DNA of 64,000 nt from a virus: IMG/VR virus record IMGVR_UViG_3300026078_000018. One strand, 5' to 3'. Position 1 is the first letter of the stretch; each line of letters opens with the position of its first letter. Below the pieces are notes generated by a model. It was not told where the DNA came from, ran no database searches, and was given only the letters and a program-made list of their open reading frames with translations. A program made the position numbers and the translations under genes. This document shows, piece by piece, positions 38,442-64,000 of this stretch.

Positions 38442-38861
38442 ATGCCCCGAAAGGCAGTCCCTTCGAGCACGAAATGCGTCACCTGCCACCACCCTCGCAG
38501 CTTCCACCCCGGCGGTGGCCGATGCCTGGCTGCACAGTGCTCCGCAGAGTGTAAGAAGTTCAAGATGCCGTCGCCTGCGGCGGCCACGACGATGCCCGTC
38601 GCGCCGGATCCCCGTGAACTGATCGCAGCACTGGATGTCCTGACCACCGTCGTACAGCGCGCGCCCAAGACCTACCGTGCCAAGGCTGCGATCAACCTGG
38701 AATGGTTCATCAACTCCTTCCCCACCCTGCGTAGAGCCGCCGGATCCTCAGACCGGCCCCTACGTCAAATTCTCGCCGACTGTCGCCAACCGCCCGCCGC
38801 GCCCCAAGACGCGGAGGTGGCCCCCGACGATGCCAGCAGAGAAGACACACCAGGACCATGA
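38442..38861 (+). CDS. Cys/His-rich hypothetical protein
   Basis: CVTCHH.RSFH....C....C...C; GAGG RBS. Confidence 0.55.
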   Translation: MPRKAVPSSTKCVTCHHPRSFHPGGGRCLAAQCSAECKKFKMPSPAAATTMPVAPDPRELIAALDVLTTVVQRAPKTYRAKAAINLEWFINSFPTLRRAAGSSDRPLRQILADCRQPPAAPQDAEVAPDDASREDTPGP

Positions 38862-41331
38862 CGGCCTGCTGTACCAGTTCGCCAGCGCACCGCCGCTGAG
38901 CATCACCGCCGCATTCGGCAGCGACGACCAGGACGACGAGTACCACAACTGGGCCCTGCAGGAATCCGAGTCCTGCCCAACCTGTGGCGAACACCATCCG
39001 CCGGAGCAGACGGCCAAATGCCCCTATGGCGGCTGCTACGACGGTGAGCACTGCCCCAACGACTGCCCCTACGAGAGCGGCCACACCAACTGGGACCAGG
39101 TCTATCCGCACCTGCCCGACACCATGCACCGCGGCATGTCGCTGCGCCTGCCCCACGACTTCGACCCGGCTGCGCCCCCGCACCGCATGGCCCGCACCAT
39201 CGCCGAAAACCTGCGCGAATACGGCTCCGGCACCCACTGGACCCCCCACGAGCACATGGCCCGCCACTACGCCGCCGTCAGCCACCGCAACGGCGACGAC
39301 CTCCACGTCATCCTGCACGCCGCCAAACCCGACCGCGACGACATCGAAGAAGACCCCCACGAACTGCTCAAACACGACGTCATCGGCTTCGGCGAACACC
39401 CAGACGCCGAAATCCCTCTACAGCGCGGCGTACCCGTCCACCTGACCGGCATCTCCTACCGCCGCCCCGACCAGAAGTCCTGGACCCGCCACGACTTCAA
39501 GACACCCATGGAACACCGGGCTGTTCTACGCGAGGCGATGCCGTCGACCAAACACCCGCGGCCGGACGGCTTCTACACCACCGTCAGACACGAGCCCCGA
39601 GACACCGACCAGCGCGGCTGGCACGGCACCACCATGATCGGACACCACCAAGGCCGCCAGGTCACCGAGGCCTACTTCCACGTCCACCCCCACGGCGACG
39701 CCATCGACATCCACTCCATCATCACCCACGACGGACACGAGGGACACGGCTACGCCTCCGCCCTCATGGACGACCTCTACGCCACCTACCCCCACGCCGT
39801 CATCAACCACGGGGCACGAACCGACAACGGAACCAACTGGTGGCAGTCCTACGAAGACCCGGCCCCCGACCGCAACACCCACAACATGCCAGCCTCCGAA
39901 TACGAGGAACACTTCGACCCGCAAGAGATCGAAAACGACAAGAAAACCAATCAGAACAGCGAGACCTATCTCAACACCCTCCACCACACCGCAGGCGGAC
40001 AGCCCTGGCTACCCCACGACCGCTACTTCGGCCCCGGCCACCCCGACCTCGACCCGCGCCTGTTTGACGGCACCCAGCTCAAACCCGCATGGCGGCGCGC
40101 GCTACTCGGACTCGTCAACCGCGCCTTCGCCGACTACACCTACCGCGTCCCCGGCGCCTGGCAACGCTGGGCCCGCGCCTACCTCGCCGGATCCCAGGCC
40201 TCCCACTGGTACGGCAACAACGACCTGGACGTCCTCGTCGGCATCGACTACAACGTCTTCCGGCGCGCGCAGCCGCGGTACCGGACGATGAGCGACCGCG
40301 ACATCGACGAGATGCTCAACGCCCGCGCGCACGAAGTCTGCGACCCAGCGCGCTGGTTCACCATCAACGGGCAGCACCTCGGACCCTTCGACTCCACGGT
40401 CTACATCAATCCGGACAGCTTCGACATCCGCAAGATCAAGCCGTATGCCGCCTACGACCTCGGCGCCAACCGCTGGACCGTCGAACCGATGGAAGTTCCC
40501 GACGACTTCGGCCCGGACAAGCTGCCGACCGCCGACTTCCTCTACGCCCGCTCCCTGGCATCCCAGGTGCGCTCCCTCAAGAAGCTCCCCGCTGGGCAGG
40601 CACAGGCCCTCGGGGCCGCGCTGTACGACAAGCTGCACGGTGAGCGCCACGACGCTTTCAGCGGCCACGGCGGAGGCCTCTACGACGTCCGCAACGTGGC
40701 CTGGAAGTACCTGGCGCTGCACCCAGAGAAGCCTATGGAGCAGCTGGTCGCATGGAAGCGTGCTGAGCAGGCCGAACCGGGAGCGCAGCACACCGCGGGG
40801 ACGAGCGGCCCCGGTTCTGATGCCGACTTCAACGACGACTCGGTGATGATCGCGCTGGTGCCGCCGCGGGACGTCGCCGAGCGCCTCGTGCTGCCCGACG
40901 GCAAAGGCGAGCCCGCCGACCAGATGCACATCACCCTCGCCTACATCCCGCATGTCCCGCCGGGTGATCTCGGACGTCTCACCGGCACCGTGGCCGAGTG
41001 GGCCTCCCGCCAGCGGCCCATCGTCGCGCGGGTCCAAGGCGCCGGGACGTTCGTGAACCCCGGCAAGCATGTGTTGTGGGGCGCCGTCGACATTCCTGGT
41101 TCTTCCCACCTGCACTCTTCGCTGGTGGACGCGCTGCGGGCAGCCAAGTTCCAGCCGAGTACTGATCACGGATTCACTGCGCATTTGACCATTTCATACG
41201 AGAAATACCACGTGCGGTTCCTGCCTAAGATCGATCCAGTGTCCTTCACCTGTCACAGCGTGTACGTCTGTCAAGGTGACAACTGGCGCCCAGTGCCCGT
41301 AGGAGGCTCAACCGGTGGAAAAGTGACGTGA
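38830..41331 (+). CDS. polyvalent protein: Zn + ADP-ribosyltransferase-like + GNAT + Pol-beta nucleotidyltransferase + 2H phosphoesterase
   Basis: MHRG..GTHWT..ARHYA..EIPL; GHGYASALM; GSQAS..DLDVLV; HITL/HLTI; GGAGG RBS. Confidence 0.75.
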   Translation: MPAEKTHQDHDGLLYQFASAPPLSITAAFGSDDQDDEYHNWALQESESCPTCGEHHPPEQTAKCPYGGCYDGEHCPNDCPYESGHTNWDQVYPHLPDTMHRGMSLRLPHDFDPAAPPHRMARTIAENLREYGSGTHWTPHEHMARHYAAVSHRNGDDLHVILHAAKPDRDDIEEDPHELLKHDVIGFGEHPDAEIPLQRGVPVHLTGISYRRPDQKSWTRHDFKTPMEHRAVLREAMPSTKHPRPDGFYTTVRHEPRDTDQRGWHGTTMIGHHQGRQVTEAYFHVHPHGDAIDIHSIITHDGHEGHGYASALMDDLYATYPHAVINHGARTDNGTNWWQSYEDPAPDRNTHNMPASEYEEHFDPQEIENDKKTNQNSETYLNTLHHTAGGQPWLPHDRYFGPGHPDLDPRLFDGTQLKPAWRRALLGLVNRAFADYTYRVPGAWQRWARAYLAGSQASHWYGNNDLDVLVGIDYNVFRRAQPRYRTMSDRDIDEMLNARAHEVCDPARWFTINGQHLGPFDSTVYINPDSFDIRKIKPYAAYDLGANRWTVEPMEVPDDFGPDKLPTADFLYARSLASQVRSLKKLPAGQAQALGAALYDKLHGERHDAFSGHGGGLYDVRNVAWKYLALHPEKPMEQLVAWKRAEQAEPGAQHTAGTSGPGSDADFNDDSVMIALVPPRDVAERLVLPDGKGEPADQMHITLAYIPHVPPGDLGRLTGTVAEWASRQRPIVARVQGAGTFVNPGKHVLWGAVDIPGSSHLHSSLVDALRAAKFQPSTDHGFTAHLTISYEKYHVRFLPKIDPVSFTCHSVYVCQGDNWRPVPVGGSTGGKVT

Positions 41332-41356
41332 CCATAGCATCATGTGATGCTAGACT
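41328..41356 (+). promoter_or_regulatory. promoter with near-perfect palindromic operator
   Basis: TAGCATCATGTGATGCTA at 41335-41352; TAGACT -10 box. Confidence 0.65.
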
Positions 41357-41844: not shown

Positions 41845-41856
41845 AGGAGCGCCCCG

Positions 41857-42773: not shown

Positions 42774-43066
42774 GCCACGCCCGTGGTCAGAGGCCCAGTT
42801 CGAGGTTGAGTCATGGGACAACCTTGACTCTTCGATGCTGGCGTTCCGCCTGACCGGAAGTTAAAGTGGGCCCCGTATCCAGCTTCGGCTGGAGCAGCAT
42901 CAGGGTTGCCTTGCTTCTGCAAGGTATTTCTCCTGGTCGTTCTTGGCAGTGTGTATCCAGTCGCGTGGCTACACAAGCGCTGAGACCCCCCGGGGCCAGC
43001 TCGGGATCTAGCCGGTCATCCCAGATCCGGCAGATCCACAAGGGTGACTCTCCGGGGGGTTTCTGT
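42774..43066. ncRNA. candidate ~290-nt structured RNA
   Basis: Several nested or crossing stems, including a cUUCGg hairpin, in an intergenic gap. Confidence 0.45.
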
Positions 43067-43196
43067 TTCCCCGCCCGCGCTTCGCTCCCCGCCGATAGCC
43101 TTCAACGCGCGACCTGCTCGGTTTGCCGCCCCAAGCCGGGGGCTGGTGCTGCAGCAGGTTTTGAAACGCCCCCACGCCACGCGGAGACCGATTCAC

Positions 43197-43628
43197 ATGA
43201 TTCACGACGCCCCCATGCGCCCACCCCGCCTGACCGGCCGTTTAATACAGGTCGGGGCCCTCCTCACCGACGGCGCCACCAACCTGCAGATCGCTCACCA
43301 GCTGAAACTGAGTGAGACCACAGTCAGCAAATACGTGGTACGGCTGATGGCTGCCACCGGAACCAGTTCGCGCACCCAGGCCGCAGTCCAAATGATCGAA
43401 CGCGGCCTGGTCCCCACCCCCGCCGGTCGCGCCCTCATCCGGGTCGATCACCTGCAGGTTCTGATGGCGGCCTTGCGGAAGGTCGAACCCGACTATCCGT
43501 CTATCGCAGACCTGGCTACCCGTTTCGAGGCCGTCTACCCGGCAGCGGCCGCGACAGGAGCGCACCGCGGCGCTAATCTGGAAAAGCTGTCATGTCAGCG
43601 CCCGGATAGCAGCGAGGACACCGCGTGA
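43197..43628 (+). CDS. LuxR-type HTH regulator (contains a TTA codon)
   Basis: G.TN.QIA.QL.LSE.TV..YV..LM......SR; TTA at 43242. Confidence 0.75.
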   Translation: MIHDAPMRPPRLTGRLIQVGALLTDGATNLQIAHQLKLSETTVSKYVVRLMAATGTSSRTQAAVQMIERGLVPTPAGRALIRVDHLQVLMAALRKVEPDYPSIADLATRFEAVYPAAAATGAHRGANLEKLSCQRPDSSEDTA

Positions 43629-44695: not shown

Positions 44696-45235
44696 ATGCA
44701 GAACATCGACAGCGCCACACTCCAAACGATCCTGACGATCCGGCTGTCCGAATACCACGGCGCCTATCACCCCGCCGCGGTCGCTGAATACGTCATCACC
44801 GTCATCGCCGAAGCCGGGCTGCTCGCCGTCGAGGCACGGGACGCCATCCTGCCCTCCACCGACGGCCACGCCCCCCTCGAAGTCGCCGTCGTAGCCGAGG
44901 CACTGCGCGCCAACCTCGGAAACAGCAGCCTGTCACTGACGGGACTGGCCACTGTCATCATCGCCACCCTGCAGCAGTACGGGATCAGTCGCATCGGCCC
45001 CGTAGGCGGTGTGCGCCTGAGCCAGCGCCAACGCCAAAGCCTCACCCTGTATGCGCAGGGCAACTCCTACGAGGAGATCGGTACGATCATGGGAATCTCC
45101 TCCGACACCGTCAAAAACCACCTGGAGAGAGCCCGGGAGGCCTTCGGCGCACGTAACACGGTCCACGCCGTGGTCAAGGCCTCGACGATGAGACTGATCG
45201 ACCCCGACGGCACCCGCATACTCACCGCCGCCTAA
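44696..45235 (+). CDS. C-terminal LuxR-type HTH regulator
   Basis: LSQRQ..L...AQG.SYEEI...MGIS..TVK.HL. Confidence 0.8.
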   Translation: MQNIDSATLQTILTIRLSEYHGAYHPAAVAEYVITVIAEAGLLAVEARDAILPSTDGHAPLEVAVVAEALRANLGNSSLSLTGLATVIIATLQQYGISRIGPVGGVRLSQRQRQSLTLYAQGNSYEEIGTIMGISSDTVKNHLERAREAFGARNTVHAVVKASTMRLIDPDGTRILTAA

Positions 45236-45328: not shown

Positions 45329-47572
45329 GTGACGACCCAACCGACGGGACAGGAGCGAGCCTTGAGCACCCAGTCACAGGCCCTACGGCAGGCGATGGCC
45401 AAGGCCACCAGCGGAGCCGAACTCAACGAGCTGGCCACCGAGCTGGCCGCCGCCGACCGCGCCGAGGCCGTGCGCAAGCAGGCCGCCGCCGACCTGGACT
45501 GGGCCGCCACCGCGACCGCCGCCACCTTCGCACCAGTCCAGACCTACACGGCCACGGTTCACACCGCCGCCTCTGACTGGCTCGGTGAGATCCCCGAGGG
45601 CACCGGCGACTGGCCCCGACGCCTCGTCGCAGAGGCCTCCCTGTGGTACACCCGCCTGGCCCCGGAGATCATCGAGGACGCCGACGAATTCAGCGCCCAA
45701 GCCCACGGCGCAGCACGCGTTGCCGCAGGGCGCCTCGGGGTTCACCCGGCGGCTGCGACCCCCAGCTTCTTGGACTACGTCCACTTCCTGCGCAAGCGCG
45801 CCGGATCCGGGCTGCCACAGATCCAGCAGACCACCGATGCCAACAACGCCCCCGCGCCCACCCCGCTGCCCCCGGACGTCTTCGACAACTTCGCCCCGCC
45901 GGTCGACCCGGTCAACGCCGGAACCGCGGGCACCGAAACCTCCATGCGCGCACCCATCATGTCCGAGATCGGCGGTACCGCCCCGACGGCCGGACCCGGC
46001 AGCGCACCGGTCTCCGGACCGGATCCCGTCCGCGCCGGAGACGATGCAGAGGGCGTCGACACCGAAAACGACCAGGACAAGGGTGCCCTGAGCGGCTCCA
46101 TGGCCGTCAACCACTCCTACACCCTCGCCGACTACCTGCGCACCACCGGCGCCATGCCCGAAATGGACTACGACGACGACATTTTCGGCGGCGACGATCC
46201 CGATCGCGAACACGACTACCACCGAGAGGAGATGCGGCGCCGCGCCGAGATCCCCGCACCCGACGACCGGGAGCAGCGCCGCCGCCACGACTTCGGCAGT
46301 CACTACCAGTGGCAGCGGTACCAGGACGCCGCCGATGAGTACGGGCCCGAACTCGCCCGGCAGATGCACCCGCTGCCCGGCACCCCGATCCACACCGGCG
46401 CCTCCACCCTGGACCAGATCCAGCAGACCACCGCCCCCGACGGCGTCACCAACCGCCCCACCCCGCTGCCGGACGCTGTCGCCTACCCCTGGATCATCAG
46501 CCCCAACGCCGAAAACGACGCCCCGCCTGCCGACGGCGAAATGGCCCAAGGCATGCAGCCCGCAGCCACCGTCACCACCGGCGAAGCCGCCTACGGCCGC
46601 CAAGCCGCCCACACCCACACTGCCGACCAGTGGCACGGCCAGGAATGGCCCCATGCCGTCGTCCAGCCGGACGCGTTCAACACTCCGGCCTCGACCCCGA
46701 TCCCGCCGACCGGCAGCGCCGAGACCGGCCGCACCGATGCACTCGCCGACCGCGGCGCCGCCGACACCGCCCCCACCTACAACGACGTCTCCGGTCACAT
46801 CCCGGACTACGCCCGCTCCTACGCCGAGACCTACAGCACCGCCCCCGGCCAGCAGCCCAACCAGGACATCCCGGCGGGCATGTCCGGGCCGCCGACCCAG
46901 CCTGCCCGACTGTCCCACCTGCTTTCCCGCGAAGACGAACGAGCCCTGCCGGACTACGCTGCCGGATACACCGCAGGCACAGCCTGGAAAACCGGCGGCG
47001 CCATCCCCGGCTTCGGCAGCGGCCACTTCGAAGCCGGGCTCTACGCCGGGATCCTGGACAACCCCGCCATCCAGCAGCCCTTCACCGACGCCCACCGCAA
47101 CGCTGCCGCAGCCGACCGGCGCGCCGGAAGCCGCATCGCCCGCCACGCCAGCGCCAGCGCCGCCCTGCACGGCCACCCCGGCCTGCCCGACACCGTCGGC
47201 ATCGAAGGCCCCTACCTGCGCCTCACCGCGGCCACCTCCACCGACTTGGACACCATGGCCCCCGGCACCAGCGCCGACCCCACCGGGAATACCCCCTTCA
47301 ACGGACCCGGCCGCCCCCCGATGCTCGACGGCCAGTACGGCGCCGCTGACCCCGGCGGCCCGCCGCCCTACAACGGCGCCCCGCCATACGGCACCCTCGC
47401 GGTTCCTACCGGAGCCGCAGCCACCACCGGCGCACCCGTCACCATCCCCGACACCGGCATGACCACCCCCAACCGCGCCACGGCGTTCCGCCGTACCGTC
47501 CAAGCCAACCTGGCCCGCGCCGCCGCTGGGGCCCCGCTGCTCACGATCGCCGACCCCGAGGGGAGCCTGTGA
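45329..47572 (+). CDS. head-associated, low-complexity multi-module protein
   Basis: Head region; xTA/TGA junctions; internal QIQQTT..PTPLP duplication. Confidence 0.6.
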   Translation: MTTQPTGQERALSTQSQALRQAMAKATSGAELNELATELAAADRAEAVRKQAAADLDWAATATAATFAPVQTYTATVHTAASDWLGEIPEGTGDWPRRLVAEASLWYTRLAPEIIEDADEFSAQAHGAARVAAGRLGVHPAAATPSFLDYVHFLRKRAGSGLPQIQQTTDANNAPAPTPLPPDVFDNFAPPVDPVNAGTAGTETSMRAPIMSEIGGTAPTAGPGSAPVSGPDPVRAGDDAEGVDTENDQDKGALSGSMAVNHSYTLADYLRTTGAMPEMDYDDDIFGGDDPDREHDYHREEMRRRAEIPAPDDREQRRRHDFGSHYQWQRYQDAADEYGPELARQMHPLPGTPIHTGASTLDQIQQTTAPDGVTNRPTPLPDAVAYPWIISPNAENDAPPADGEMAQGMQPAATVTTGEAAYGRQAAHTHTADQWHGQEWPHAVVQPDAFNTPASTPIPPTGSAETGRTDALADRGAADTAPTYNDVSGHIPDYARSYAETYSTAPGQQPNQDIPAGMSGPPTQPARLSHLLSREDERALPDYAAGYTAGTAWKTGGAIPGFGSGHFEAGLYAGILDNPAIQQPFTDAHRNAAAADRRAGSRIARHASASAALHGHPGLPDTVGIEGPYLRLTAATSTDLDTMAPGTSADPTGNTPFNGPGRPPMLDGQYGAADPGGPPPYNGAPPYGTLAVPTGAAATTGAPVTIPDTGMTTPNRATAFRRTVQANLARAAAGAPLLTIADPEGSL

Positions 47573-49602: not shown

Positions 49603-52600
49603 ATGGCCGCTCAGCAGCCCCGCCAGACCCCCAAGCCCAAGGGTCAGGTCAGCGCCGCCGACGAACGGAGCTTCGCCGCGCTGCAGGCGGCGTTCCGCCG
49701 CGGCCGGTCCAGCGATGACCCCCAGGTCGCCGAGATGAAGGCGAACCGGCGGGCCGCTGCGGGGCGCAAGCAGGGCTCGTTCTCATCCTCCACCACCGTC
49801 GGCTCCGGCGCCCTCACCTTCGCCACCGGCCGCCCGCGGGACCCGCTGTTCTACTGGAAACAGAACAACCTCCCGTATGAGCTGACGCGCGCCGATGAGC
49901 TGATCCGGCTGCGGGCGTACTGCCGTCTGCTGTACGCGTCGCACCCGGTGATCGCCTCCTGCGTCGACATCTACACCAAGTACCCTCTTCTAGGTATGGA
50001 ACTTCGCTGCTTTGCAGGGGAAACGCCCGTCATCACAGAGATGGGAACGCGCCAGATCAGAGACCTGGCCGGTGAAACCCACTCGATTCTGACCACCGGC
50101 GGCAAGTGGGTGGATGCACAGTTCGACAGCTACGGACAACAGCGGCTGCTGCGACTGGAAGTAAGGCGCAATGGCCGTACCCGCGAGATCTTCACGACTG
50201 CTGGGCACCGGTGGTATGTCTGGGGCACAGAAGGCCCAGGCCGCGGCAACGCTGGGGTTCAGAACCCCTCAGCCAAGCTGACTTGGGAAGCCGTCCAAGA
50301 GATTCGGCGTCGATACTCGGAAGGGGGAATCTCCCAAGCAAAGCTCGCCGCAGAATATGGCGTTACTCAGCCGATGATCGGTGGCATCGTGCGGGGAACT
50401 TCGTGGAAGTCCTCAGGGGAGGAGTCCCACCAGACCATCCGGCTTCACCCGGTCAAGAAGGAAATCGAGACCTCGCAGCTTGAGCCAGGGATGAAGCTGG
50501 TCAGCTGCTACCCCACCGCGCGGGTCCACTCGACCAACCCAAGCCCGTTCGGTATCGCCCACGGCATGGTCGTGGGCGACGGGACCCTGGCGACCTCCGG
50601 CCGAGGTGCGACCGTTGACCTCTGGGGCGAGAAGGACGCCCAGATGCTCAAGTACTACGCCGGATGTGAGACGTACCAGGTCACCGACACCTGCATCCGG
50701 GTCACCAACCTCCCCGCGTACTTCAAGGCCCTCCCCGCCATCAGCGAGTCACAGTCCTATCTCTACGGCTGGCTGGCAGGCTACTTCGCTGCTGACGGAA
50801 CTGTCTCCAAGAAGGGTGAAGTCCTGCTGGACTCCGCTTCGCGAAGCAACCTCCAGTTCGCGCGCGACGTCTGTCACCGTCTGGGAATTAAGACCCACGA
50901 CATCTATGAATACGTAGTCGCTCAGAAGAAGACGCCCCGGGGAGCGATCCTCAAGGACTGGCGCGGATACCGACTGCCCATCGACCCGGACTCTCTGACC
51001 GAAGCGTTCTTCTGCATGACTCACCATCTGGAACGGTGGCAGACGCGCCCAGAGCGTGTTCGTGAGCGCTGCGAGGACTGGACGGTCATCAGCGTTTCGG
51101 AAACTGATCGCATCGAAGAGGTCTTCTGCGCGAAGGTCCCGAACACGGAGGCCTTCACCCTCGACGGCAATATCCTTACAGGAAACTGCAAAGACCAGAA
51201 GATCACCGACTTCTACACCGAACTGTTCCTCGACGAGGACCGGCTGAACTACCCCGAGTTCCTGCTCAAGGTGGGCCGCGAGTATTGGACCTGCGGTGAG
51301 GCGTGGCCGTTCGCTACGTTCAACGAGCCGCTGGGGATCTGGGAGCACGAGGAGCTGCTCAACCCCGACGACATCGAAGTCCAGGCCTCACCGTTCCTGC
51401 GGGATCCGCGGTTCCTGATCCGGCTGCCGGAAACCCTGCGCAACGTCATCATGCGCCGCGAACCGGCCTGGGAGTACGAGCAGCTGATGGCCGCCTACCC
51501 GGAGCTGGCGAACTACGCCAGCAACGATTCGAAGATGCCGGTCAGCAACATCTTGCTGCGGCAGCTGAAATTCGAGACCGACACGTTCAACCCCCGCGGC
51601 GTCCCCATCCTGATGCGCGCGATGCGCGCCGTGATGCAGGAGGAGATGCTCAACGCCGCCCAGGACGCTATCGCAGACCGCCTCTACACCCCGCTGATCC
51701 TGGCCCGCCTGGGCGCCTCGGCCACCGAGCTCGGCACGCAGACCCCGTGGATCCCCACCCCCGACGACCTGGAGGAGTTCGAGCAGGCCCTCGACGCGGC
51801 GCTCGCGGGCGACTTCCGGGTGCTCACCTACCACTTCGGTGTGCAGATGGACGAAGTCTTCGGCCGCGAATCCATGCCGGACCTGTCAAATGATTTCGAA
51901 CGGCTGGAGGGCCGGATCCTGCTGTCCTTCGGCCTGTCCGCGACGCTGCTGACTGGCGCCGGGGAAGGCGAGACCTACGCCGCCGATGCCCTCAACAAAG
52001 ACCTGGTGTCCCAGCTGCTCACCACCTACCAGTCCCTGCTCAAGAGGCACTACAGGCAGAGGGCCCTGATCGTGGCCGAAGCCCAGGAGCACTTCGACTA
52101 CGAGGAGCGCGGCGGCAAACGCTACGTGAAATACGAGGAGATCCTGGAGATCGACGAAGAGACCGGCGAAGAGTCGATCATCCGACAGCCGAAACTGCTT
52201 GTCCCCGACATGTACATGAACACCATGTCTCTGTCTGACGACGAGCAGCAGCGCGGGTTCCTGGAGCAGCTGCGCGAGACCGGCGTCCCCATCTCGATGC
52301 GCACCCGCCTGACCAACATCCCCATCTCCTTCGAGGAGGAGCTGGAACGCTCCCAGGACGAGCAGGTTCAGCTGGCCGTCGCCGAACAGGAAACTCGCAA
52401 GCGCCAGTACCTGGAGCTGCGTAACCAGGGCCTGCCGATTCCCTCCGACCTGCGCGCCGACTTCGAGCCGCAGGCCATGCAGGCCCAGATCCCCTCGGCC
52501 ACCGAGGGCATGCGCACCCCCGTCATGGGCCTGGATCCCGGCATGCCCTACCCCAACCTGGCCCCCACCCCCGAAGACGTCGCCCAAGACCCCACCGCGG

Positions 52601-52896
52601 CCCCGCCCGGCATGCCCACCGAACCCGGCGCCGACCTCGCCGCCGAGGAAGACCCTGCGGTCCAGGAGGAAGACGAGCAGAGGCCCGACGAATCCGACGA
52701 GCAGCGTGGCGGCATGCCCAAGGACGCCGTCCTGTATCGGAAGGCTGCCCGCATGCGCGAACTCGGCCGCACCCACCGCCCCCTGCTCGCTGAAGACGGC
52801 ACCGCGCGCCGCCGCACCCGCCTGGACGAACCCCGCCACATCGGGCTGCGCAGACACGCCCTGGTCGACGCCGACACCCCGCTGGCCGACGACTGA
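49603..52896 (+). CDS. portal protein containing an intein
   Basis: LYASHPVIASCVDIY..YPL, RGVPIL, acidic C-tail; location in the head module. Confidence 0.75.
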   Translation: MAAQQPRQTPKPKGQVSAADERSFAALQAAFRRGRSSDDPQVAEMKANRRAAAGRKQGSFSSSTTVGSGALTFATGRPRDPLFYWKQNNLPYELTRADELIRLRAYCRLLYASHPVIASCVDIYTKYPLLGMELRCFAGETPVITEMGTRQIRDLAGETHSILTTGGKWVDAQFDSYGQQRLLRLEVRRNGRTREIFTTAGHRWYVWGTEGPGRGNAGVQNPSAKLTWEAVQEIRRRYSEGGISQAKLAAEYGVTQPMIGGIVRGTSWKSSGEESHQTIRLHPVKKEIETSQLEPGMKLVSCYPTARVHSTNPSPFGIAHGMVVGDGTLATSGRGATVDLWGEKDAQMLKYYAGCETYQVTDTCIRVTNLPAYFKALPAISESQSYLYGWLAGYFAADGTVSKKGEVLLDSASRSNLQFARDVCHRLGIKTHDIYEYVVAQKKTPRGAILKDWRGYRLPIDPDSLTEAFFCMTHHLERWQTRPERVRERCEDWTVISVSETDRIEEVFCAKVPNTEAFTLDGNILTGNCKDQKITDFYTELFLDEDRLNYPEFLLKVGREYWTCGEAWPFATFNEPLGIWEHEELLNPDDIEVQASPFLRDPRFLIRLPETLRNVIMRREPAWEYEQLMAAYPELANYASNDSKMPVSNILLRQLKFETDTFNPRGVPILMRAMRAVMQEEMLNAAQDAIADRLYTPLILARLGASATELGTQTPWIPTPDDLEEFEQALDAALAGDFRVLTYHFGVQMDEVFGRESMPDLSNDFERLEGRILLSFGLSATLLTGAGEGETYAADALNKDLVSQLLTTYQSLLKRHYRQRALIVAEAQEHFDYEERGGKRYVKYEEILEIDEETGEESIIRQPKLLVPDMYMNTMSLSDDEQQRGFLEQLRETGVPISMRTRLTNIPISFEEELERSQDEQVQLAVAEQETRKRQYLELRNQGLPIPSDLRADFEPQAMQAQIPSATEGMRTPVMGLDPGMPYPNLAPTPEDVAQDPTAAPPGMPTEPGADLAAEEDPAVQEEDEQRPDESDEQRGGMPKDAVLYRKAARMRELGRTHRPLLAEDGTARRRTRLDEPRHIGLRRHALVDADTPLADD
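50008..51186 (+). mobile_element. LAGLIDADG intein (393 aa) with an HTH insertion
   Basis: N-terminal CFAGET, TTAGHRW block B, VVGDG and LAGYFAADG, C-terminal ILTGN followed by Cys. Confidence 0.9.
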
Positions 52897-52962: not shown

Positions 52963-54858
52963 ATGCTGCAGCGACAGGGACGCGCGCACAGGCTGCACAC
53001 AGCCGCCATAGCCGATCGGACTGCGCCGGTCTACGACTACGGCATCCGCTCCCGCGTCATGACCTGCGACGGCCACCCCGGCACCGTCCTGGCCGTCGCC
53101 GAAGGCCCCTTCCCAGGCACCGAATCCTACGAAGTCCAGCTCGACGGAGGCCTCGGCGGAGGCCAATACCTGCCCGGCCAACTGCAGCCCCTCGCAGCCG
53201 GACACGCCCCCGGCACCGCCGCCGCCGACTACCCGGAACTCGCACAGGTCCTCGCCGAACACCCCGACCCGGCCCGCGGCACCCTGGCCCGCGCAGCCGT
53301 CCTGCAGACGACCGCGATGCCGTCGCAGCGGCACCCGGCGCCGAGCGGGTTCCACGTACGGGAGTTTTTCCCCTCCTATGACGGAGACCCGAGCTCCGAG
53401 GAGGAAGTCCCGCCCGGTTACGACGACCACCCCACGCCCTGCAGCGGCCGCGACTGCGGTCACTTCGAGGAGCGCGTGCTGAAAGGCTTCGACCCCTCCC
53501 ACGGGGCCCACCCCAACCCGGTCTCCGAGCTCGCGTATCACCTGTCCAGCTGTGGCCACCAAGCCAAGGTGGACATGCTGTACAGCCGCCCGGACGCACA
53601 GCATCACGGCTACGCCTCAGCGATGATGGACCACCTGTACGCGCGCCACCCGCAGGCCGAGATCGACCACGGCGAGCGCACCCCCGAAGGCCAAGACTGG
53701 TGGTCCAGCTACACCGACCCGGACCCGGGCCGATCCACCGGCGGCTTCTCCTCCATCGTCGCCGCCACCATGCAGACTGCCGGTATGCAGCCGACAGGTG
53801 ACTTCCAGCAGGACCACGCCAACAGCCGGGCACGGAACTTCCACGACCGGATGCGGACGTTCATGAACGTCAACGGCGGCCACCGCATCCCCGCGGCCCC
53901 GGCCACTGGCCGCGAAGCCCACGAGGCAATGGCCAGCACCTGCCCAGATTGCGGCCGCACCCTGCACACCGATGCCACAACCGACACCTCCGGCGTCACA
54001 GGTCCCGATGGCCGCCCGGAGCCCCTGCAATTCGACACCCCCTGCGACACCAGCAACCCGCACCGCGCGCCACTCGGCGACACCGCCCACGAACCTGACG
54101 ACCAGCCGATCGAACAGTCCATCGGTGCACCATGCACCGGCTGCGGCACCCCCATGGGCAGTGAACAGAGCCACTACGGCTGTCAGATGTGCGGCCGGGG
54201 CGACCACCACTCCTACTGCTGCCCCACTCTGCACCACGGCTCACACACCGCCGTCTCCGAGATGACCCTCGGCGAGACGATCGTCCCCGACCGCATCCCG
54301 GGCCCTGGACCTACCAAGGCCCACTCGCCGATGGACAACCCCGCCTCCTCCGGCTGGGCCTCCGGGCCCGACCCCGACCAGTGGTCCGCAGCCCCGCTAT
54401 ACCCGCTGGACTCCCGCGTCGGCGCCTCACAAACCGACGAGCTTCAGCTGGAAGGCCCCGGCGCCGAAGCCACCCTGCACGAGGAACCGACCGCGGCGCT
54501 GCCGTCCACCGACGGCGAAATCAACGCCGACGACACCGACCCCGAAGCCCTCAATCCGATGGGCTTCAACGCCGTCCTGCAGGACTTCTGGTCCAAGGCC
54601 GCACACCTGGACCCCCGCCGCAGCGGCGGCGCAGCTCGCACCGACGGCGACATCGCCGCGGCTGCCCGCGCACACCTGGCAGGACTGGACAAGACCGCCG
54701 CCTACGCCTTCACCCCCGGCCAGCGCCGCGAGCTGATCGAGGAAGCACCCGAGGCGCGCGCCGCCAACGCCGACCGGCTGGATCTGACCGGGACTCACTA
54801 TGCGGATATGCAGCAGATGATGGGCGATGATGAGGAGGATGCGGCATGGCTGCTGTGA
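52963..54858 (+). CDS. polyvalent head protein: SH3-like + GNAT + Zn modules + C-terminal motif
   Basis: HGYASAMM..IDHGERT.EG.DWW; CxxC modules; FTP.QRRELIEE..LDLTGTHY. Confidence 0.65.
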   Translation: MLQRQGRAHRLHTAAIADRTAPVYDYGIRSRVMTCDGHPGTVLAVAEGPFPGTESYEVQLDGGLGGGQYLPGQLQPLAAGHAPGTAAADYPELAQVLAEHPDPARGTLARAAVLQTTAMPSQRHPAPSGFHVREFFPSYDGDPSSEEEVPPGYDDHPTPCSGRDCGHFEERVLKGFDPSHGAHPNPVSELAYHLSSCGHQAKVDMLYSRPDAQHHGYASAMMDHLYARHPQAEIDHGERTPEGQDWWSSYTDPDPGRSTGGFSSIVAATMQTAGMQPTGDFQQDHANSRARNFHDRMRTFMNVNGGHRIPAAPATGREAHEAMASTCPDCGRTLHTDATTDTSGVTGPDGRPEPLQFDTPCDTSNPHRAPLGDTAHEPDDQPIEQSIGAPCTGCGTPMGSEQSHYGCQMCGRGDHHSYCCPTLHHGSHTAVSEMTLGETIVPDRIPGPGPTKAHSPMDNPASSGWASGPDPDQWSAAPLYPLDSRVGASQTDELQLEGPGAEATLHEEPTAALPSTDGEINADDTDPEALNPMGFNAVLQDFWSKAAHLDPRRSGGAARTDGDIAAAARAHLAGLDKTAAYAFTPGQRRELIEEAPEARAANADRLDLTGTHYADMQQMMGDDEEDAAWLL

Positions 54859-55301
54859 AGGAGCCTACGGCGGTGCAGGACGCTGCCGCGGTGGCGGCGG
54901 AGAATCCGTTCGGCGAGGGCGGCGTGCAGGTGATGCTGACGGCGCCGTACGACGCGCACGGTCTGGCTATGGAGCTGTCGGCGGCGATGCCGGGTGTTGC
55001 GTCGGCGCTGCGGGCCCCGGCCAAGCCTGACGAGCCGGTGTCGGCGGACAATCCGGCGTGGTTGTCGCTGGGCGGTGAGGGCGTGTCGGTGGCGACGGTT
55101 CGGAAGGTGGTCGCTGCGCACGTTCCGACCTTGTCGGGTGATGTTACTAGGAACATCCGGGGATCTGATGTGGCGCAGGGTATCCAGGATCTGAGAGAAC
55201 GGTTGTCGGCCGGTGAGGTGCTCGACGCCATCGGGTGCTCCAAGGCCATCGCGCTGCTGCTGGGGGTTTACCCCCCCGAATCCCCAACAACAGCGGAGTA
55301 A
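54846..55301 (+). CDS. hypothetical protein
   Basis: GGAGG RBS; overlaps the previous stop. Confidence 0.55.
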
Positions 55302-55443
55302 ACAGGCTAAGCCTGGAAATGCCACGCGAATGGTGCATCGGGTCTGCTCTAGCACACGGCCCGGCCCGCCCTGCGGCACCCCGGACGGTCGACCACCCCG
55401 TCACGGGGTGCTGTCGCGTCCGGCCCCGGTTGCGGCAAGATGC

Positions 55444-56004
55444 ATGAGCCTTTCGAACCTGGCCGTGCTGGACGAATACAAGCGCCCTGCCGCCGGAGCC
55501 CGCGGCCCCGGCTTCCCTGACGGCTACCCCGCCAACTGCCGCACCTTCTACTCGCCGGTCGACGATGTCCACGGGGCACTCGCCCGGCTGCTGGATTCCG
55601 CCGACCACTCCCTGGTGATCGGCATGTATGGGTTCGACGATGAAGAACTGGCTGGGATCGTCAAGGCCAAGTTGGCCCACCAGGACATCTTCGTGCAGCT
55701 GACGTTGGACTCTTCCCAGGCTGGGGGCGTGCACGAGCGGCAGCTGCTGGCCGAGGCCGCCTACCCCGCGGCCTCCGTCGCCGTCGGCCGCTCCGAGCGC
55801 GGCGCGATCATGCACCTCAAGATGGTCATTGTCGATGGGCTCGACGTCGTCACCGGCTCCACCAACTGGTCCCAGGGCGGTGAAACCCGGCAGGACAACG
55901 CGTTGGTGGTGGTCCGGGACCCGTTTGTGGCCGCCGAGGCCCGTGCCCGCCTGGATGCCATCCACGCCCACATGCTGTCGGCGCAGCCGCGCACCACCCG
56001 CTGA
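55444..56004 (+). CDS. single-HKD phospholipase D/Nuc-like nuclease
   Basis: HLKMVIVD.....GSTNWS. Confidence 0.85.
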
Positions 56005-58434: not shown

Positions 58435-58541
58435 CATGTCTACATCAACTCCACATCCTCACACGGCCCCCTGTGCGGTCGGCGGCGCGCGCTGCGAAGG
58501 ACGGAACACGTCCCTTTCCCGTTGCGATGCGAGGAGCCGCT

Positions 58542-59471
58542 ATGGCCCGTTGGAGCGATATCGCCGAGTGGATCGGCCCCACCGAGAACCGTTACCCGGG
58601 CGGCATGGGCTCGGTCGCCGGTGTCGTCCTGCACATCCAGGACGGCTCCGAGGCCGGAACCGAAGCCTGGCAGAAGAACCCGTCTGCGCAGGTCTCCTCC
58701 CACTTCCTGGCACCTCGGGATGGTGGTCTTCGGCAGATGACCGATACCCGTGATGCAGCTTGGGCAGAAGTGTCAGGTAATTTGCACTGGCTGTCGATCG
58801 AGAACGAAGGCTTCGGCGGGCAGCCACTCACCGCCGACCAGATCGAGTCATGTGCCCAGGTGCTGGCGCGCGCCCACGCCGTCTACGGCGTGCCGCTGCA
58901 GGCCTGCGACGACCCGCTGCTGCCCGGCGCCGCCGGACTCACCGGCCACGGCAAGGGCGGCGCCGCGTGGGGCGGCCACTACGACTGTCCCGGCGACCCG
59001 GTGCTGGCCCAGCGCGCCGCCATCCTCGACCGCGCCGCGGCGATCGTCGGGGCCCGACCTACCCCGACCCCCACCCCGGTGCCGACCCCGGCGCCCACAT
59101 CCGAGGAGGACGACGACATGGCTATCGCCCTGATGGGCTCGGTGCCCGAAGGCTTCGACGAGGCGCTGGTGCTCACCCCGCCGCCGCCGCAGACCGGCAA
59201 GAACTGGGGCGACCGCAACGTCTGGCTCTCCTTCGGCGCCGACTTCGACGACGCGCTGCTGCGCATCGCCTACTGGGTGCACGGCGACTCAGCCTGGAAG
59301 GTCATGCCGCAGCCGCTGCACGTGCCCCGCGTCGGCGACCGCGTCAACCCGTTCGGCGGCCCGGCGCCGAAGGGCCTGCAGAAGGTGTCGGTCAAGCGCG
59401 TGGCCGCCTCCGAAGCCGACAAGGGCACCTGCCCGGTCGGATGGCTCGTCGAGGTCGGACCAGCCTCGTGA
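58542..59471 (+). CDS. endolysin, N-acetylmuramoyl-L-alanine amidase (Amidase_2)
   Basis: VVLH, SSHF, AWA, SIENEG, GH and DCPG motifs; PT linker; GAGGAG RBS. Confidence 0.88.
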   Translation: MARWSDIAEWIGPTENRYPGGMGSVAGVVLHIQDGSEAGTEAWQKNPSAQVSSHFLAPRDGGLRQMTDTRDAAWAEVSGNLHWLSIENEGFGGQPLTADQIESCAQVLARAHAVYGVPLQACDDPLLPGAAGLTGHGKGGAAWGGHYDCPGDPVLAQRAAILDRAAAIVGARPTPTPTPVPTPAPTSEEDDDMAIALMGSVPEGFDEALVLTPPPPQTGKNWGDRNVWLSFGADFDDALLRIAYWVHGDSAWKVMPQPLHVPRVGDRVNPFGGPAPKGLQKVSVKRVAASEADKGTCPVGWLVEVGPAS

Positions 59472-60440: not shown

Positions 60441-63400
60441 ATGCTGAAGTTCGCCACCGCCGAGATCCTCTCGGCGCATCCCAGCGCCCACGCCACGCCC
60501 GCGCTGGCCCGCACAGCCCATCGCGCCGACTTCAGCCATCACCAGGTGCGCCCCGGCTTCCTGTATGTCCGCTCCCGCGCCATCTCCAGTCGTTGTAACG
60601 ACAACTTCGACGAGTTCCCTGCTGAAGAGCTTGAGAAGTCGTACAAGACGTTCATCGGCAAGCCGGTGTTCGTCAACCACGTCAACCACGACACCGACCG
60701 GGCTCGCGGAGTCGTCATCGACGCCGCCCTACACCGCGACCGCAACCCCGACGGCAGCCCCGACACCTGGGTCGAAGTCCTCATGGAAGTCGACGGCCTG
60801 CGCTTCCCCAAGCTCGCCGCCGCCATCATGGCCAAGCCACCGCGCGTCTACGAGACCTCCATGGGCTGCGACGTCGACTACTCCATCTGCAGCGCATGCG
60901 GCAACAAGGCCACGCGCCCGGAGGAGTACTGCCGCCACATCCCCGCTGCCAAGGGCACCCCCTACGCGGTCACCGACCACAAGACCGGCACCCGGCAGAC
61001 CAGCCCTATCCGCGAGATCTGCTACGGCCTGCGGTTCTTTGAGAATTCCCTGCTGGTCGAGGCACCGGCCGACCCGACCGCGCAGCTGCTTGGGGTGGAC
61101 GCCACCGGCCTGGACAAGACCTCGGCCGCCCGCCGCACTGCAATGCCGTCGCAGAACCACTCGCGTCCCGAAGGCTTCTACAGCACCATCACAGACCCCT
61201 ACGGCGACAAGGTCAGCCCCGGCCACTGCCCGCTATCCGACCCGAACTGCGATAGCAGAGCTCACAGCTCTGACGTCTATGAAACCCTCCACGAGATGGA
61301 GGGTTTCGATCCTGCCAGCCGCAGCCACCCCCAGCGAGTGTCCTCCATCGAATATGCCGTCCACCCCTGTGGTAAGCATGTTGATGTTCATGAGCTGAAA
61401 ACCGAACCCGATGAGACCGGCAATGGCTATGCCAGCGCTCTCATGGACGATCTGTACGACGCCTATCCTCACGCGATCATCAACCATGGGCGCCGTACCA
61501 GGGAGGGCGCGGGCTGGTGGTCCTCATATGAGGACCCCGACCCGAGCCGCTCCATCGCGGATACGAGCCGCTACGCCCCCAGCCGCACCGCCCGCTACAC
61601 CGATACCGGCCCGGTTTGCTCTCGCTGCCACCACGAGGCAGGCACCGGCCCCGGCTGCCCCAAATGCGACACCGCCCGGCTGTTGAAGGGCGCCATCGGC
61701 GACCTCGACCTCGGCGCCGAAGGCCACGACATGGCCTGGCAGTACCGCGACGCTGGACCCACCGTCCACGGCACCTGCCGAAACTGCGGACGCACCACCG
61801 AGCTCGGCGCCCCCGGCATGCGCGGCGACAACACCAAGGCACCCTCTGCCCACAGCGGCCCCTGCCCGGCCACCGACCGCCACGCCCCCGACGCCGCCGA
61901 CCGACTCACCCACGCCGTCGACTACCTCCCCGAGCCGCTGCAGCCGCGCCACCAGTCCAGCCGCACCGCTGGCTACGGCTATGACGACCGCTACATCAAC
62001 TGCGATCAAGGACACTGCCACTGGGATCCCGAGCGCACCGGATCAGGCGGGATGCTCATCCACCACGGCGGCCACGTACTGCTCGGCCGCCGCGCCGACT
62101 GGGTCCAGCACCCCGGCACCTGGGGCATCCCCGGCGGCGCCCTACACGAGGACGAGACCCCCGAGGAAGGCGCCCACCGCGAAGCCACCGAGGAACTCGG
62201 CCCGCTGCCGTCCCTACAGCACACCCACACCCACCACGACGACCACGGCGGCTGGGCCTACCACACCATCGTCGCCGAAGCCCCCCACCGCTTCCACCCC
62301 GAAGGCGGCGACGCCGAAACCGACGAGTTCCGGTGGGTTCACCCTCGCGACTTCCCCGACTATGACCTCCACCCCGGCTTCGCCGCCTCCTGGCCCCATC
62401 TCGCCCCCCATGTCCGAGGAGGCGCACGTGCCGCCGTGAAGACTGCGACGCGCGCCGAAGGCCTGTCCTTCGAGCACGAGGACACAGAGACTGGCGGCTC
62501 CAAGTGGCCGATGCTGCGGACGCTGCGCGCAGTCCACCCGGAGCACGGAACTGTGGGCGCCCTGTCCTACTGGCTGCCCAAGACCTCACGCGGACCCCTG
62601 GCCATCAAGGGCGTTTACGTGCCCCAGCAGCATCAGCGCAATGGCGTCGCCACTGCCCTAATGGATGAGGTTCAGCGTATGCACCCGGCCTCGGCGATCC
62701 AGCACGGTGACCGGACCAATGCCGGGCGCGCATGGTGGGAGGCCTACAGCGACAGCGCCCCCAAACAGCTACTGCAGCGCGGACGCACCCTGGCCACCCT
62801 CACCACTGAGGCCATGCCGCCCCGGCACACCGACCCGGCCGACCACCCCTTCTTCCAGGAGCACCCGGTATCCGCCGCCCATGTGGTGGCTCACTGGGCC
62901 GACGCCACCCCCGAGGAGAAGAACCAGGGTGAGCGCTGGTACGCCGACGCGCACCTGCTGGCCCACGCCCTGGCCCACACTTACGCAGGCGGCGATACCG
63001 GCAAGGCGGCAGGCGTCATCTCCGCCTACTCCCCGCGCACCAGCTGGGCCGCCAACATGCACAACGCCGCCCGCTCTCTGGCATCCGGACGCGCCTTGAA
63101 GGTCGGCGAAGGACTGTCGATCATGGGGGTGCACCACAGCCTCGCCGACAAGATCATGAACGGTGAGCACTACGACAAGGTGCTGAAGGGCCCGAAGACC
63201 AACGCCTTTGCCAAGCTCATCCACCATGGCGGCATCGACCCCGTCACCAAGCAGCCGATGCCCCACGTCGTCATCGACCGCCACGCCCTCTCAGTCGCCG
63301 CAGGCCAACGCCTATCCGAAGACGACGTCTCAGGCTTCCCCTCTTCCACCCCCCACTACTACAACCACGTCGCCAAGATTTACGCCGACGCCGCTGCCGC

Positions 63401-64000
63401 CATCTCCAAAGCCGAAAACCGCACCGTCGCCCCCCACCAAGTCCAAGCCACCACTTGGCTCGTCCGCATCCGCCACAACCAGGAAGAAGACCGGAACCTG
63501 CGCGGCGGAGGCGGCAAGGGCCGCGTCAAGAACCAGGAAAACCAGCTCGGCCAGTGGCGCGACCTCCACCCCACGCTGCTGCCCGGCGGCGCAGGATCCG
63601 ACAACATGCACATGTCGGCGCGGGCATCGCTGAGGAATACTGGAGCCATGGACAGCGGCGATCACCAACACCAGGCAGCCGAGCACCAGCTCTGCACCAG
63701 ATGCGGACGCCGCCTGAGCCGAGACTGGGACCGCGGCGGCCAGCCCATGCACTGCGACGAATGTGGTCAGCCCGGACACCACCGCGAATGCTGCACCGGC
63801 CCCACCGACACCGCCAAAGCCCTCCAACAGCAGTTCAGCGGCGCATCCGGCCGTATCACCACCCACCCCTCCTACGGCAACGTCTACCGCGCCGACCACC
63901 CCAGCGGCTGGTACGCCACCTACCCCCACGGCGCCACATACCTCACCATCGGACACGCCGCCTCCGACGAACACCACGGCGACGCAGTACATCACGGCGA
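60441..64000 (+). CDS. prohead (capsid maturation) protease fused to GNAT, Zn, Nudix, GNAT, glycosylase-like and Zn modules; runs off the window
   Basis: Hand-translated with no stop (>1180 aa); GGAGG RBS; GKPVFVNH...TSMGC..CSACG..CRHI..FFENSLL..PADPTA; exact Nudix box; not in the supplied ORF track. Confidence 0.85.
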   Translation, partial: MLKFATAEILSAHPSAHATPALARTAHRADFSHHQVRPGFLYVRSRAISSRCNDNFDEFPAEELEKSYKTFIGKPVFVNHVNHDTDRARGVVIDAALHRDRNPDGSPDTWVEVLMEVDGLRFPKLAAAIMAKPPRVYETSMGCDVDYSICSACGNKATRPEEYCRHIPAAKGTPYAVTDHKTGTRQTSPIREICYGLRFFENSLLVEAPADPTAQLLGVDATGLDKTSAARRTAMPSQNHSRPEGFYSTITDPYGDKVSPGHCPLSDPNCDSRAHSSDVYETLHEMEGFDPASRSHPQRVSSIEYAVHPCGKHVDVHELKTEPDETGNGYASALMDDLYDAYPHAIINHGRRTREGAGWWSSYEDPDPSRSIADTSRYAPSRTARYTDTGPVCSRCHHEAGTGPGCPKCDTARLLKGAIGDLDLGAEGHDMAWQYRDAGPTVHGTCRNCGRTTELGAPGMRGDNTKAPSAHSGPCPATDRHAPDAADRLTHAVDYLPEPLQPRHQSSRTAGYGYDDRYINCDQGHCHWDPERTGSGGMLIHHGGHVLLGRRADWVQHPGTWGIPGGALHEDETPEEGAHREATEELGPLPSLQHTHTHHDDHGGWAYHTIVAEAPHRFHPEGGDAETDEFRWVHPRDFPDYDLHPGFAASWPHLAPHVRGGARAAVKTATRAEGLSFEHEDTETGGSKWPMLRTLRAVHPEHGTVGALSYWLPKTSRGPLAIKGVYVPQQHQRNGVATALMDEVQRMHPASAIQHGDRTNAGRAWWEAYSDSAPKQLLQRGRTLATLTTEAMPPRHTDPADHPFFQEHPVSAAHVVAHWADATPEEKNQGERWYADAHLLAHALAHTYAGGDTGKAAGVISAYSPRTSWAANMHNAARSLASGRALKVGEGLSIMGVHHSLADKIMNGEHYDKVLKGPKTNAFAKLIHHGGIDPVTKQPMPHVVIDRHALSVAAGQRLSEDDVSGFPSSTPHYYNHVAKIYADAAAAISKAENRTVAPHQVQATTWLVRIRHNQEEDRNLRGGGGKGRVKNQENQLGQWRDLHPTLLPGGAGSDNMHMSARASLRNTGAMDSGDHQHQAAEHQLCTRCGRRLSRDWDRGGQPMHCDECGQPGHHRECCTGPTDTAKALQQQFSGASGRITTHPSYGNVYRADHPSGWYATYPHGATYLTIGHAASDEHHGDAVHHG

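Follow-up and report, generated by a model that had tools for sequence, protein, structure and literature searches.

What joins the small enzyme modules that make up the giant head proteins of large actinobacterial phages, and what becomes of the joints? The question is raised by a window of 64,000 nucleotides (the whole stretch of DNA analyzed here) from the IMG/VR virus record IMGVR_UViG_3300026078_000018, which represents the head genes of a large uncultured soil phage (~153 kb, high-GC, of the myovirus type) akin to the Bixzunavirus (cluster C) mycobacteriophages. Three of its open reading frames (ORFs), 38830, 52963 and 60441, named by their first nucleotide, encode polyvalent proteins, i.e., strings of small enzyme modules, and one short motif recurs at the joints of these modules. 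The shared motif is real and not a product of chance. Sequence comparison suggests that the joints are probably junctions at which the prohead protease, the first module of ORF 60441, cuts the polyvalent head proteins. The original prediction for this locus had placed the motif at 19 positions in four head-region ORFs, and every one of them falls in frame on the residues named.

Polyvalent proteins and their module joints

Polyvalent proteins, as defined by Iyer et al. (2017; PMC5512222), are single polypeptides with several enzymes that are encoded by phages and by conjugative elements. The modules of the three ORFs include GNAT, NUDIX, 2H phosphoesterase, ADP-ribosyltransferase (ART)-like, DUF7178 and Zn-ribbon domains. 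At least two distinct enzymatic or effector domains are present in ORF 38830 (GNAT-like and 2H/LigT) and in ORF 60441 (protease, NUDIX, GNAT and DUF7178), and the domain combinations vary among relatives. The joints follow the consensus L-x-[H/R/K]-T-A↓, then A, G, S or M, where the arrow marks the joint. Ala at P1 is nearly invariant; P2 is more tolerant, with E, L, I, V and A also occurring. Coordinates of the joints in the three ORFs are collected in Table 1.

ORF 38830 is composed of a leader with a Cys/His region, module a1 (residues ~86-231), a GNAT-like module (237-~355), module X (389-~648) and a 2H/LigT phosphoesterase (666-795). Its three motif sites had been predicted to mark domain boundaries. 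The AlphaFold model agrees with this: sites 236↓237, 388↓389 and 656↓657 all lie in segments with a predicted local distance difference test score (pLDDT) below 50 (residues 236-244, 321-391 and 648-666), and 2 of the other 3 TA dipeptides of this ORF lie in confident secondary structure. Seven relatives (P0008-P0014), which are 69-91% identical to ORF 38830 in the common modules, differ in the order and number of modules. The position of the LREA↓M joint is occupied in relatives by RQEA↓G, EHTA↓G or RRTA↓G, and that of QHTA↓G by HTA↓G, HLA↓ followed by G or A, or HLG↓L. Upstream of module X, all seven have HTA↓, QEA↓ or HIA↓, whichever module precedes. Nearly all joints of this family (family A) are [H/R/K]-T-A followed by A, G or S, with the variants HLA, HIA, QEA, HAA, ISA and HLG. 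The motif precedes module X behind four different upstream modules, and the residues right before the motif are unrelated; the tripeptide is therefore not a hitch-hiking remnant of one ancestral linker.

The association of the motif with module edges in family A can be expressed in numbers. In the eight proteins of the family, 19 of 25 [HRK]TA tripeptides lie within 10 residues of a BLAST homology breakpoint, against 6.4 expected (p<5e-5). Control tripeptides show no such association, with 13 against 10.9 expected for [HRK]T[^A] and 40 against 39.3 for [HRK][^T]A. HTA itself occurs 16 times in the relatives of ORF 38830, where 3.2 occurrences are expected (p 3e-7).

Family A also shares an N-terminal leader of ~30 amino acids (38830-38940 in the window; P0008-P0014), 'MP...GLL.LFQTAP.SITAAF', which is followed by an acidic run; this leader is a candidate capsid-targeting part. 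Module a1 (39085-39537) is found as a stand-alone protein of ~100-170 amino acids in many phages and in two copies in some relatives. Language-model searches lead from a1 to Arr-ms/PARP ADP-ribosyltransferases, and its ART-like character is taken here as a lead.

In ORF 60441, the prohead protease is followed by a GNAT-like module, a Cys/His module, NUDIX (E 2e-15), GNAT, DUF7178 (E 4e-35) and further modules. All five [RK]TA tripeptides of this ORF lie outside the Pfam, PHROG and BLAST envelopes of protease, NUDIX, GNAT and DUF7178. The first, at the boundary between the disordered leader and the protease fold, corresponds to [LIVM]-x-[RK]-x-A↓HR in about 30 relatives. At the other end of the protease domain, relatives have L-x-[KH]-x-A, and the closest relative, an orthologue, has GKTA↓G-SRTA↓M in place of RRTA↓M. 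A comparison of orthologues for module swaps at the joints had been proposed as a check, and such a swap is seen in P0060, the closest orthologue of ORF 60441, which carries an unrelated module in place of NUDIX between SRTA↓G and VKTA↓T. In the same orthologue, QTQA↓M stands at the position of TTEA↓M. Beyond the window, ORF 60441 continues for 605 residues (L040:16484-18298), which contain two copies of a ~150-residue module 'IRIYR.VP.GV..IN.GDWVT', the further joints RHTA↓G and ATGA↓M, and a conserved Zn-ribbon block, 'AYGETKAP..VDTLR'.

ORF 52963, which follows the portal gene, consists of a 14-residue leader, a conserved N-terminal domain, a GNAT-like module (119-~265), a Zn-ribbon region and a conserved C-terminal carrier part. 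The LHTA↓A site at the end of the leader is missing in two relatives of this family (family C), P0037 and P0038, whose N-terminus differs. At the position of QTTA↓M, relatives have HTTA↓M, QITA↓M or ARTA↓M, and at that of MQTA↓G the closest relative has HNAA↓M. The conserved block 'SEM[ST]LGETI' follows [HR]-[TLF]-A↓ or VQA↓ in eight relatives (P0031-P0038) with differing upstream modules. At the position of DKTA↓A, [KR]-x-A is retained in 15 distant and most of the close relatives. Near breakpoints, 19 of the 28 [HRK]TA tripeptides of family C are found, against 12.6 expected (p 0.013), and control tripeptides are again not associated. Relatives in family C contain 18 HTA against 3.3 expected and 15 [RK]TA against 3.7. 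As in family A, the modules come in different orders in close homologues, with [H/R/K]-T-A and then A, G or S at nearly all joints. Pfam searches (E up to 1) of ORF 52963 and its parts returned no match, including to Phage_Mu_F, the domain of MuF/SPP1 gp7-like minor head protein carriers; a profile-profile search was not made. All relatives conserve the C-terminal ~55 residues of this ORF (54700-54855), 'F[ST]P..Q..LI.E....RA.N.D.LD..GTHY', which may be a removable prohead-binding part.

Comparison of many relatives bears out the location of the motif at module joints, whichever modules are joined. All four head ORFs had been described as strings of enzyme modules, which holds for 38830, 52963 and 60441 but fails for 45329, a protein in which Pfam and PHROG detect no domain or enzyme module. 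An orthologue of ORF 45329 (L042:3816-6092; 57% identical) retains TGA↓MPE and HTGA↓S.

Frequency and composition of the motif

For the four ORFs, as well as for the remaining 33 of the window, motif counts were compared with those expected from amino-acid composition. The four ORFs contain 6 HTA against 1.7 expected (p 0.008), 7 [RK]TA against 2.5 (p 0.014) and 6 [HRK]TA[AGS] against 1.2 (p 0.001). No excess is seen in the other 33 ORFs (HTA, 3 against 3.1 expected; [RK]TA, 15 against 11.0). On counts alone the excess is modest, and the position of the motif is more telling. The loosest form of the original prediction, [RKHQT]T(G)A or xEA, is indeed denser in the four ORFs than elsewhere (5.9 against 3.3 per 1000 amino acids), but it is permissive.

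The residues around the tripeptide are also biased. P1' is A, G or S in 49 of 76 sites (64%; background 26%), and Leu occupies P5 in 19 of 76 (25%; background 6%). Codons for the Thr and Ala of the motif vary freely from site to site, which places the constraint on the peptide and not on the DNA. Rare codons ending in A or T occur at the 13 [HRK]TA sites of the four ORFs (Thr ACT or ACA, 6/13; Ala GCA or GCT, 3/13) in a genome whose G+C fraction at third codon positions is ~0.85.

Prohead protease and capsid protein leaders

One carrier had been predicted to begin with the prohead protease itself, and both PHROG matches and fold support this assignment for ORF 60441. The AlphaFold model of its N-terminal 240 residues (pLDDT 77.5) resembles T4 gp21 (5jbl; Z 9.2, 123 aligned residues, root-mean-square deviation 2.7, VIA-align), and structural comparison with herpesvirus proteases gives Z 8.9 for varicella-zoster virus (VZV; 1vzv), 6.9 for human cytomegalovirus (HCMV) and 6.4 for KSHV, the herpesvirus associated with Kaposi's sarcoma. 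Almost all of the top ten Foldseek matches of the model are herpesvirus proteases, with weak E-values of 0.03-0.1. The domain has no Pfam match, and a sequence search with the protease profile found no match in PDB. Across 22 sequences, three putative catalytic residues, H80, S140 (within T-S-M-G) and H166, do not vary; their spacing resembles that of the assemblin His-Ser-His triad. As modeled, the domain is a serine protease of the T4 gp21/herpesvirus-assemblin fold that is bracketed by the same motif found at the module joints.

The protease belongs to a head module, as indicated by the portal gene upstream (49603-52896) and by the gene order in relatives, where genes for scaffold-like, cement-like and major capsid proteins lie downstream of the protease gene. 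The major capsid proteins of relatives have a variable leader of 15-20 residues that ends in [RK]-x-A and is followed by a conserved start. The leader ends RVA↓RK or RTA↓KK, with REA↓RK (GREA↓R) in the closest relative and RFA↓KA in gp92 of the cultured phage Alice. The REA↓RK leader lends some support to the xEA variant included in the original prediction.

Distant relatives and the cultured phage Alice

A near-identical phage was not found in GenBank; the closest named phages are Bixzunavirus/cluster C mycobacteriophages, with 39% identity across the protease domain. A set of 36 distant IMG/VR loci was defined by a 60-68% identical protease. The protease fusion proteins of these loci range from 563 to 1922 amino acids and diverge completely right after the protease domain. 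Their polyvalent proteins contain 82 [RK]TA against 21.9 expected, and the other ORFs of the same loci contain 96 against 61.7. Closely related IMG/VR orthologues differ by whole-module insertions or deletions. Among the protease fusions of L003, L007, L014, L017 and L019, a ParB-like module ('VADGHHR') and DUF7178 are present or absent, and the edges of these insertions or deletions read LQA↓ or LEA↓M.

In the cultured mycobacteriophage Alice, gp81, gp89 and gp90, three giant proteins of the head region, contain 13 [RK]TA against 2.7 expected, with G or A next in 12 of 13, and RTA ranks second among all tripeptides in these proteins. The tail proteins of Alice (~6000 amino acids) contain none.

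It should be noted that BLAST-endpoint density in the 36 loci is dominated by the protease boundary, and that Pfam coverage of the relatives' polyvalent proteins is too low for a comparison of sites inside and outside domains. For the unnamed modules, Pfam searches at relaxed thresholds yielded no usable match.

Gene context

The G+C content of the window is 65-71%, and nearly all genes lie on the + strand. The source is a metagenome contig of 153,052 bp, ERZ27252105 k141_1438235. The portal gene carries an intein-like insert at ~50008-51186 (~392 residues, 136-528), which starts 'CFAGETPV', has a LAGLIDADG_3 match and is followed directly by Cys529; a close relative whose portal (L042:7786-9915) is 73% identical lacks the insert. 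The stretch from the terminase-side polyvalent gene to ORF 45329 contains genes for two small sigma-factor-like/helix-turn-helix proteins (phrog_3282; 43044-43628 and 44696-45235). Between ORF 52963 and ORF 60441, the head module also contains genes for a PLD-like (PLDc_2) protein (55213-56004) and an Amidase_2 endolysin-like protein (58473-59471).

Table 1. Features of the head-gene region, with the residues (res) of each joint in its own protein
Feature	Coordinates	Strand	Observations
Large terminase	35961-38234		
Polyvalent protein A, 833 aa (amino acids)	38830..41331	+	
Junction LREA↓M, res 233-236, a1/GNAT-like boundary	39526..39537	+	AlphaFold low-confidence stretch 236-244
Junction HHTA↓G, res 385-388, ahead of module X	39982..39993	+	six homology breakpoints, res 380-385; pLDDT<50 over 321-391
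Junction QHTA↓G, res 653-656, ahead of LigT module	40786..40797	+	eleven breakpoints, res 644-653; pLDDT<50 over 648-666
Protein B, 747 aa, rich in Ala, Thr and Pro, fits the set poorly	45329..47572	+	
Portal protein with intein-like insert	49603..52896	+	phrog_2833, E 1.7e-144
Polyvalent protein C, 631 aa	52963..54858	+	
Junction LHTA↓A, res 11-14, end of N-terminal leader	52993..53004	+	HTA↓A retained in 7/9 family C relatives (P0031-P0036, P0039)
Junction QTTA↓M, res 115-118, ahead of GNAT-like module	53305..53316	+	BLAST module edges at res 118-120
Junction MQTA↓G, res 270-273, past GNAT-like module, weaker support	53770..53781	+	GNAT matches stop at res 259-268
Junction SHTA↓V, res 427-430, ahead of conserved block 'SEM[ST]LGETI'	54241..54252	+	
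Junction DKTA↓A, res 576-579, ahead of conserved ~55-aa C-terminal block	54688..54699	+	
Polyvalent protein D, at least 1791 aa on source contig	60441..64000 (continues beyond window)	+	
Junction ARTA↓H, res 23-26, disordered leader/protease fold boundary	60507..60518	+	model res 1-25 pLDDT<50
Prohead protease domain, res 27-234, H80/S140/H166 invariant	60519..61142	+	phrog_2774, E 1.8e-51; phrog_18299 'head maturation protease', E 4.8e-18
Junction RRTA↓M, res 231-234, protease domain end	61131..61142	+	protease matches all end at res 226-244, divergence beyond
Junction SRTA↓R, res 381-384	61581..61592	+	ARTA↓R in orthologue P0060
Junction SRTA↓G, res 507-510, NUDIX left edge	61959..61970	+	alignment with P0060 (67% identity) runs up to res 512, 2 residues beyond site
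Junction VKTA↓T, res 666-669, NUDIX right edge	62436..62447	+	P0060 homology restarts at res 673, 4 residues beyond site
Junction TTEA↓M, res 788-791, ahead of DUF7178	62802..62813	+	DUF7178 matches begin at res 784-808
Junction NTGA↓M, res 1066-1069, past DUF7178, weaker support	63636..63647	+	P0060 homology stops at res 1061, 8 residues short of site

Discussion

The most probable function of the joints is, in our opinion, that of cleavage junctions for the prohead protease. The polyproteins would enter the prohead by means of conserved carrier parts; the protease would then free itself, trim the leader of the capsid protein and cut the polyproteins at each joint, and the freed enzymes would remain in the head and enter the host along with the DNA. 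Since the grammar is common to all joints, a module could be gained, deleted or exchanged there with processing left intact, which would explain the observed shuffling. Gene context is consistent with capsid packaging and with delivery together with DNA, and the kinds of enzymes present hint at a possible role in countering host defence. The original prediction viewed the motif as a modular packaging tag. This view is abandoned, as the motif is a joint; targeting is more likely a matter of the conserved carrier parts at the two termini. Candidates for it are the conserved leader in the ORF 38830 family, both terminal parts in the ORF 52963 family and, in ORF 60441, the protease- and scaffold-like ends, all of them likely targeting parts.

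Several observations weigh against cleavage by the prohead protease. The characterized phage proteases of the gp21 fold, T4 gp21 and those of phiKZ and SPN3US, cut after Glu, not Ala (PMC10052503). A literature search found no proteomic or biochemical data on cleavage, virion content or injection for this phage group. A position matrix built from the capsid-leader, protease N-terminal and family C sites of relatives gives a 1.7-fold enrichment in the four ORFs and fails to distinguish them from other proteins. In the 36 distant loci, a coverage-dip score with the protease boundary masked and FoldIndex disorder ranks were both null, although these tests are crude. Some joints have the deviant forms HLA, HIA, ISA, HLG or QA↓M, a few [HRK]TA are internal to folded modules, and both HTA sites of ORF 45329 are altered in its orthologue L042:3816-6092 (to HTM and TVA). 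The capsid-leader evidence comes from relatives, since the source contig ends inside ORF 60441, before the phage's own capsid gene. Finally, the p-values are optimistic because orthologous sites are not independent.

An unlikely alternative is that the proteins remain uncut and the motif is a conserved joint for module shuffling or a feature of linker structure, such as a domain cap, a turn or a recombination joint. Modules are indeed swapped exactly at the joints, and some polyvalent proteins, e.g., the N4 virion RNA polymerase, are packaged unprocessed (Iyer et al. 2017; PMC5512222). A structural or shuffling joint accounts poorly, however, for unrelated module families that end in the same tripeptide with unrelated residues just upstream, and for P1' and P5 preferences that resemble protease subsites. 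Moreover, the motif also ends the capsid leader and brackets the protease domain, where shuffling does not occur. Codons differ among the sites, so that there is no common DNA joint; a recombination joint at the DNA level is unlikely for this reason.

That a protease other than the prohead protease, of host or phage origin, cuts the same sites is improbable. The preference for Ala at P1 and a small residue at P1' resembles signal-peptidase-like specificities, and the known phage relatives of the gp21 fold prefer Glu; but no other peptidase domain was found when the head module was searched. The motif flanks the protease domain and the capsid leader, which are classic substrates of prohead proteases, and herpesvirus proteases of the same fold do cut after Ala.

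Two further explanations are very improbable. Chance occurrence of TA-rich linkers, picked by eye in an Ala/Thr-rich, high-GC proteome, might be suspected from the permissiveness of the widest motif, the 15 TA dipeptides of ORF 45329, the four [HRK]TA of the large terminase and the weak or null outcome of the position-matrix, coverage-dip and FoldIndex tests, but it is already largely refuted by the composition-corrected excess in independent proteins and in a cultured phage, by control tripeptides that are not associated with breakpoints and by the conservation of sites within otherwise variable linkers. Equally improbable is the use of A↓M joints as internal translation starts that yield separate module proteins: ATG follows six joints, with GAGG or GGAG 2-4 bases upstream in 3 of 6, but a typical ribosome-binding site would lie farther from its start, the other 3 have none, and the residue after most joints is G, A or S, not M.

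Processing by the prohead protease would have a close counterpart in phage T4. The T4 gp21 protease recognizes internal proteins IPI-III, Alt and the leaders of gp23 and gp24, and a capsid targeting sequence is known. The two systems share the protease fold, and here too a short motif would be read by the head protease and the leaders of capsid proteins would be removed. T4 also carries enzymes in its head and injects them, among them the ADP-ribosyltransferase Alt, and the same is proposed here. Unlike the joints described above, T4 sites end in Glu (L/I-x-E) and are cut once per substrate, which removes an N-terminal targeting peptide; the joints end in Ala and not in the Glu of L/I-x-E or S/A/G-x-E, occur many times per protein between enzyme modules, and are accompanied by a protease that is the first module of one polyprotein.

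The assemblins of herpesviruses cleave after Ala and thereby gain release from a longer precursor. The proteases of VZV (1vzv), HCMV and KSHV resemble the phage protease in fold and, as far as the proposed specificity is concerned, in cleavage after Ala with a small P1' residue. Assemblin likewise forms the N-terminal domain of a longer precursor with scaffold, from which it is released by its own cuts at both ends. The differences are that these are eukaryotic viruses, that the precursor carries scaffold only and no enzyme cargo, that two sites are known, and that P3 is not basic.

Jumbo phages provide another parallel. The proteases phiKZ gp175 and SPN3US gp245 cut many head proteins, including ejection or inner-body proteins, at a short conserved motif, some of them multiply, and process themselves, and cargo is ejected into the host (PMC10052503; PMC5694885). 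These phages infect Gram-negative hosts, and differ in that their motif ends in Glu and that the substrates are mostly separate genes rather than shuffled strings of small enzymes.

The polyvalent proteins of Iyer et al. (2017; PMC5512222) resemble those described here in their late/head gene context, in their GNAT, ART, NUDIX-type and ParB-like modules and in extensive domain shuffling. The same authors noted GNAT in phage Alice and proposed that embedded peptidases process polyvalent proteins; the idea that an assemblin-like peptidase does so is already found in that work. The junction motif is not in that paper, and its assemblin-like peptidases are always C-terminal, whereas the protease is N-terminal here. 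What is new is a defined Ala-ending junction tripeptide common to three carrier families, its coincidence with the points of module swap, and an N-terminal protease as the first module.

A cassette system in Bixzunavirus-like actinophages can be suggested tentatively. A small enzyme flanked by L-x-[H/R/K]-T-A↓[A/G/S] within one of three carriers would, in such a system, be loaded into the prohead, cut free by an assemblin-type protease with Ala at P1, delivered with the DNA and shuffled between phages; we regard this wider scheme as possible, but short of probable.

If the joints are indeed cut by the prohead protease, a specificity (Ala at P1, a basic residue at P3) would be predicted for the first time for head proteases in a large actinobacterial phage group, which includes hundreds of cultured cluster C mycobacteriophages with giant head genes still annotated as hypothetical. 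Phages that can be grown on Mycobacterium smegmatis make the prediction directly accessible to mass spectrometry of virions. Such cutting would show that the Ala specificity of herpesvirus assemblin is shared by a phage protease with that fold, and would explain the free shuffling of modules in giant head proteins. The giant ORFs could then be read as parts lists of mature enzymes, namely GNAT, NUDIX, 2H phosphoesterase and ART-like proteins, which would probably act in the first minutes of infection.

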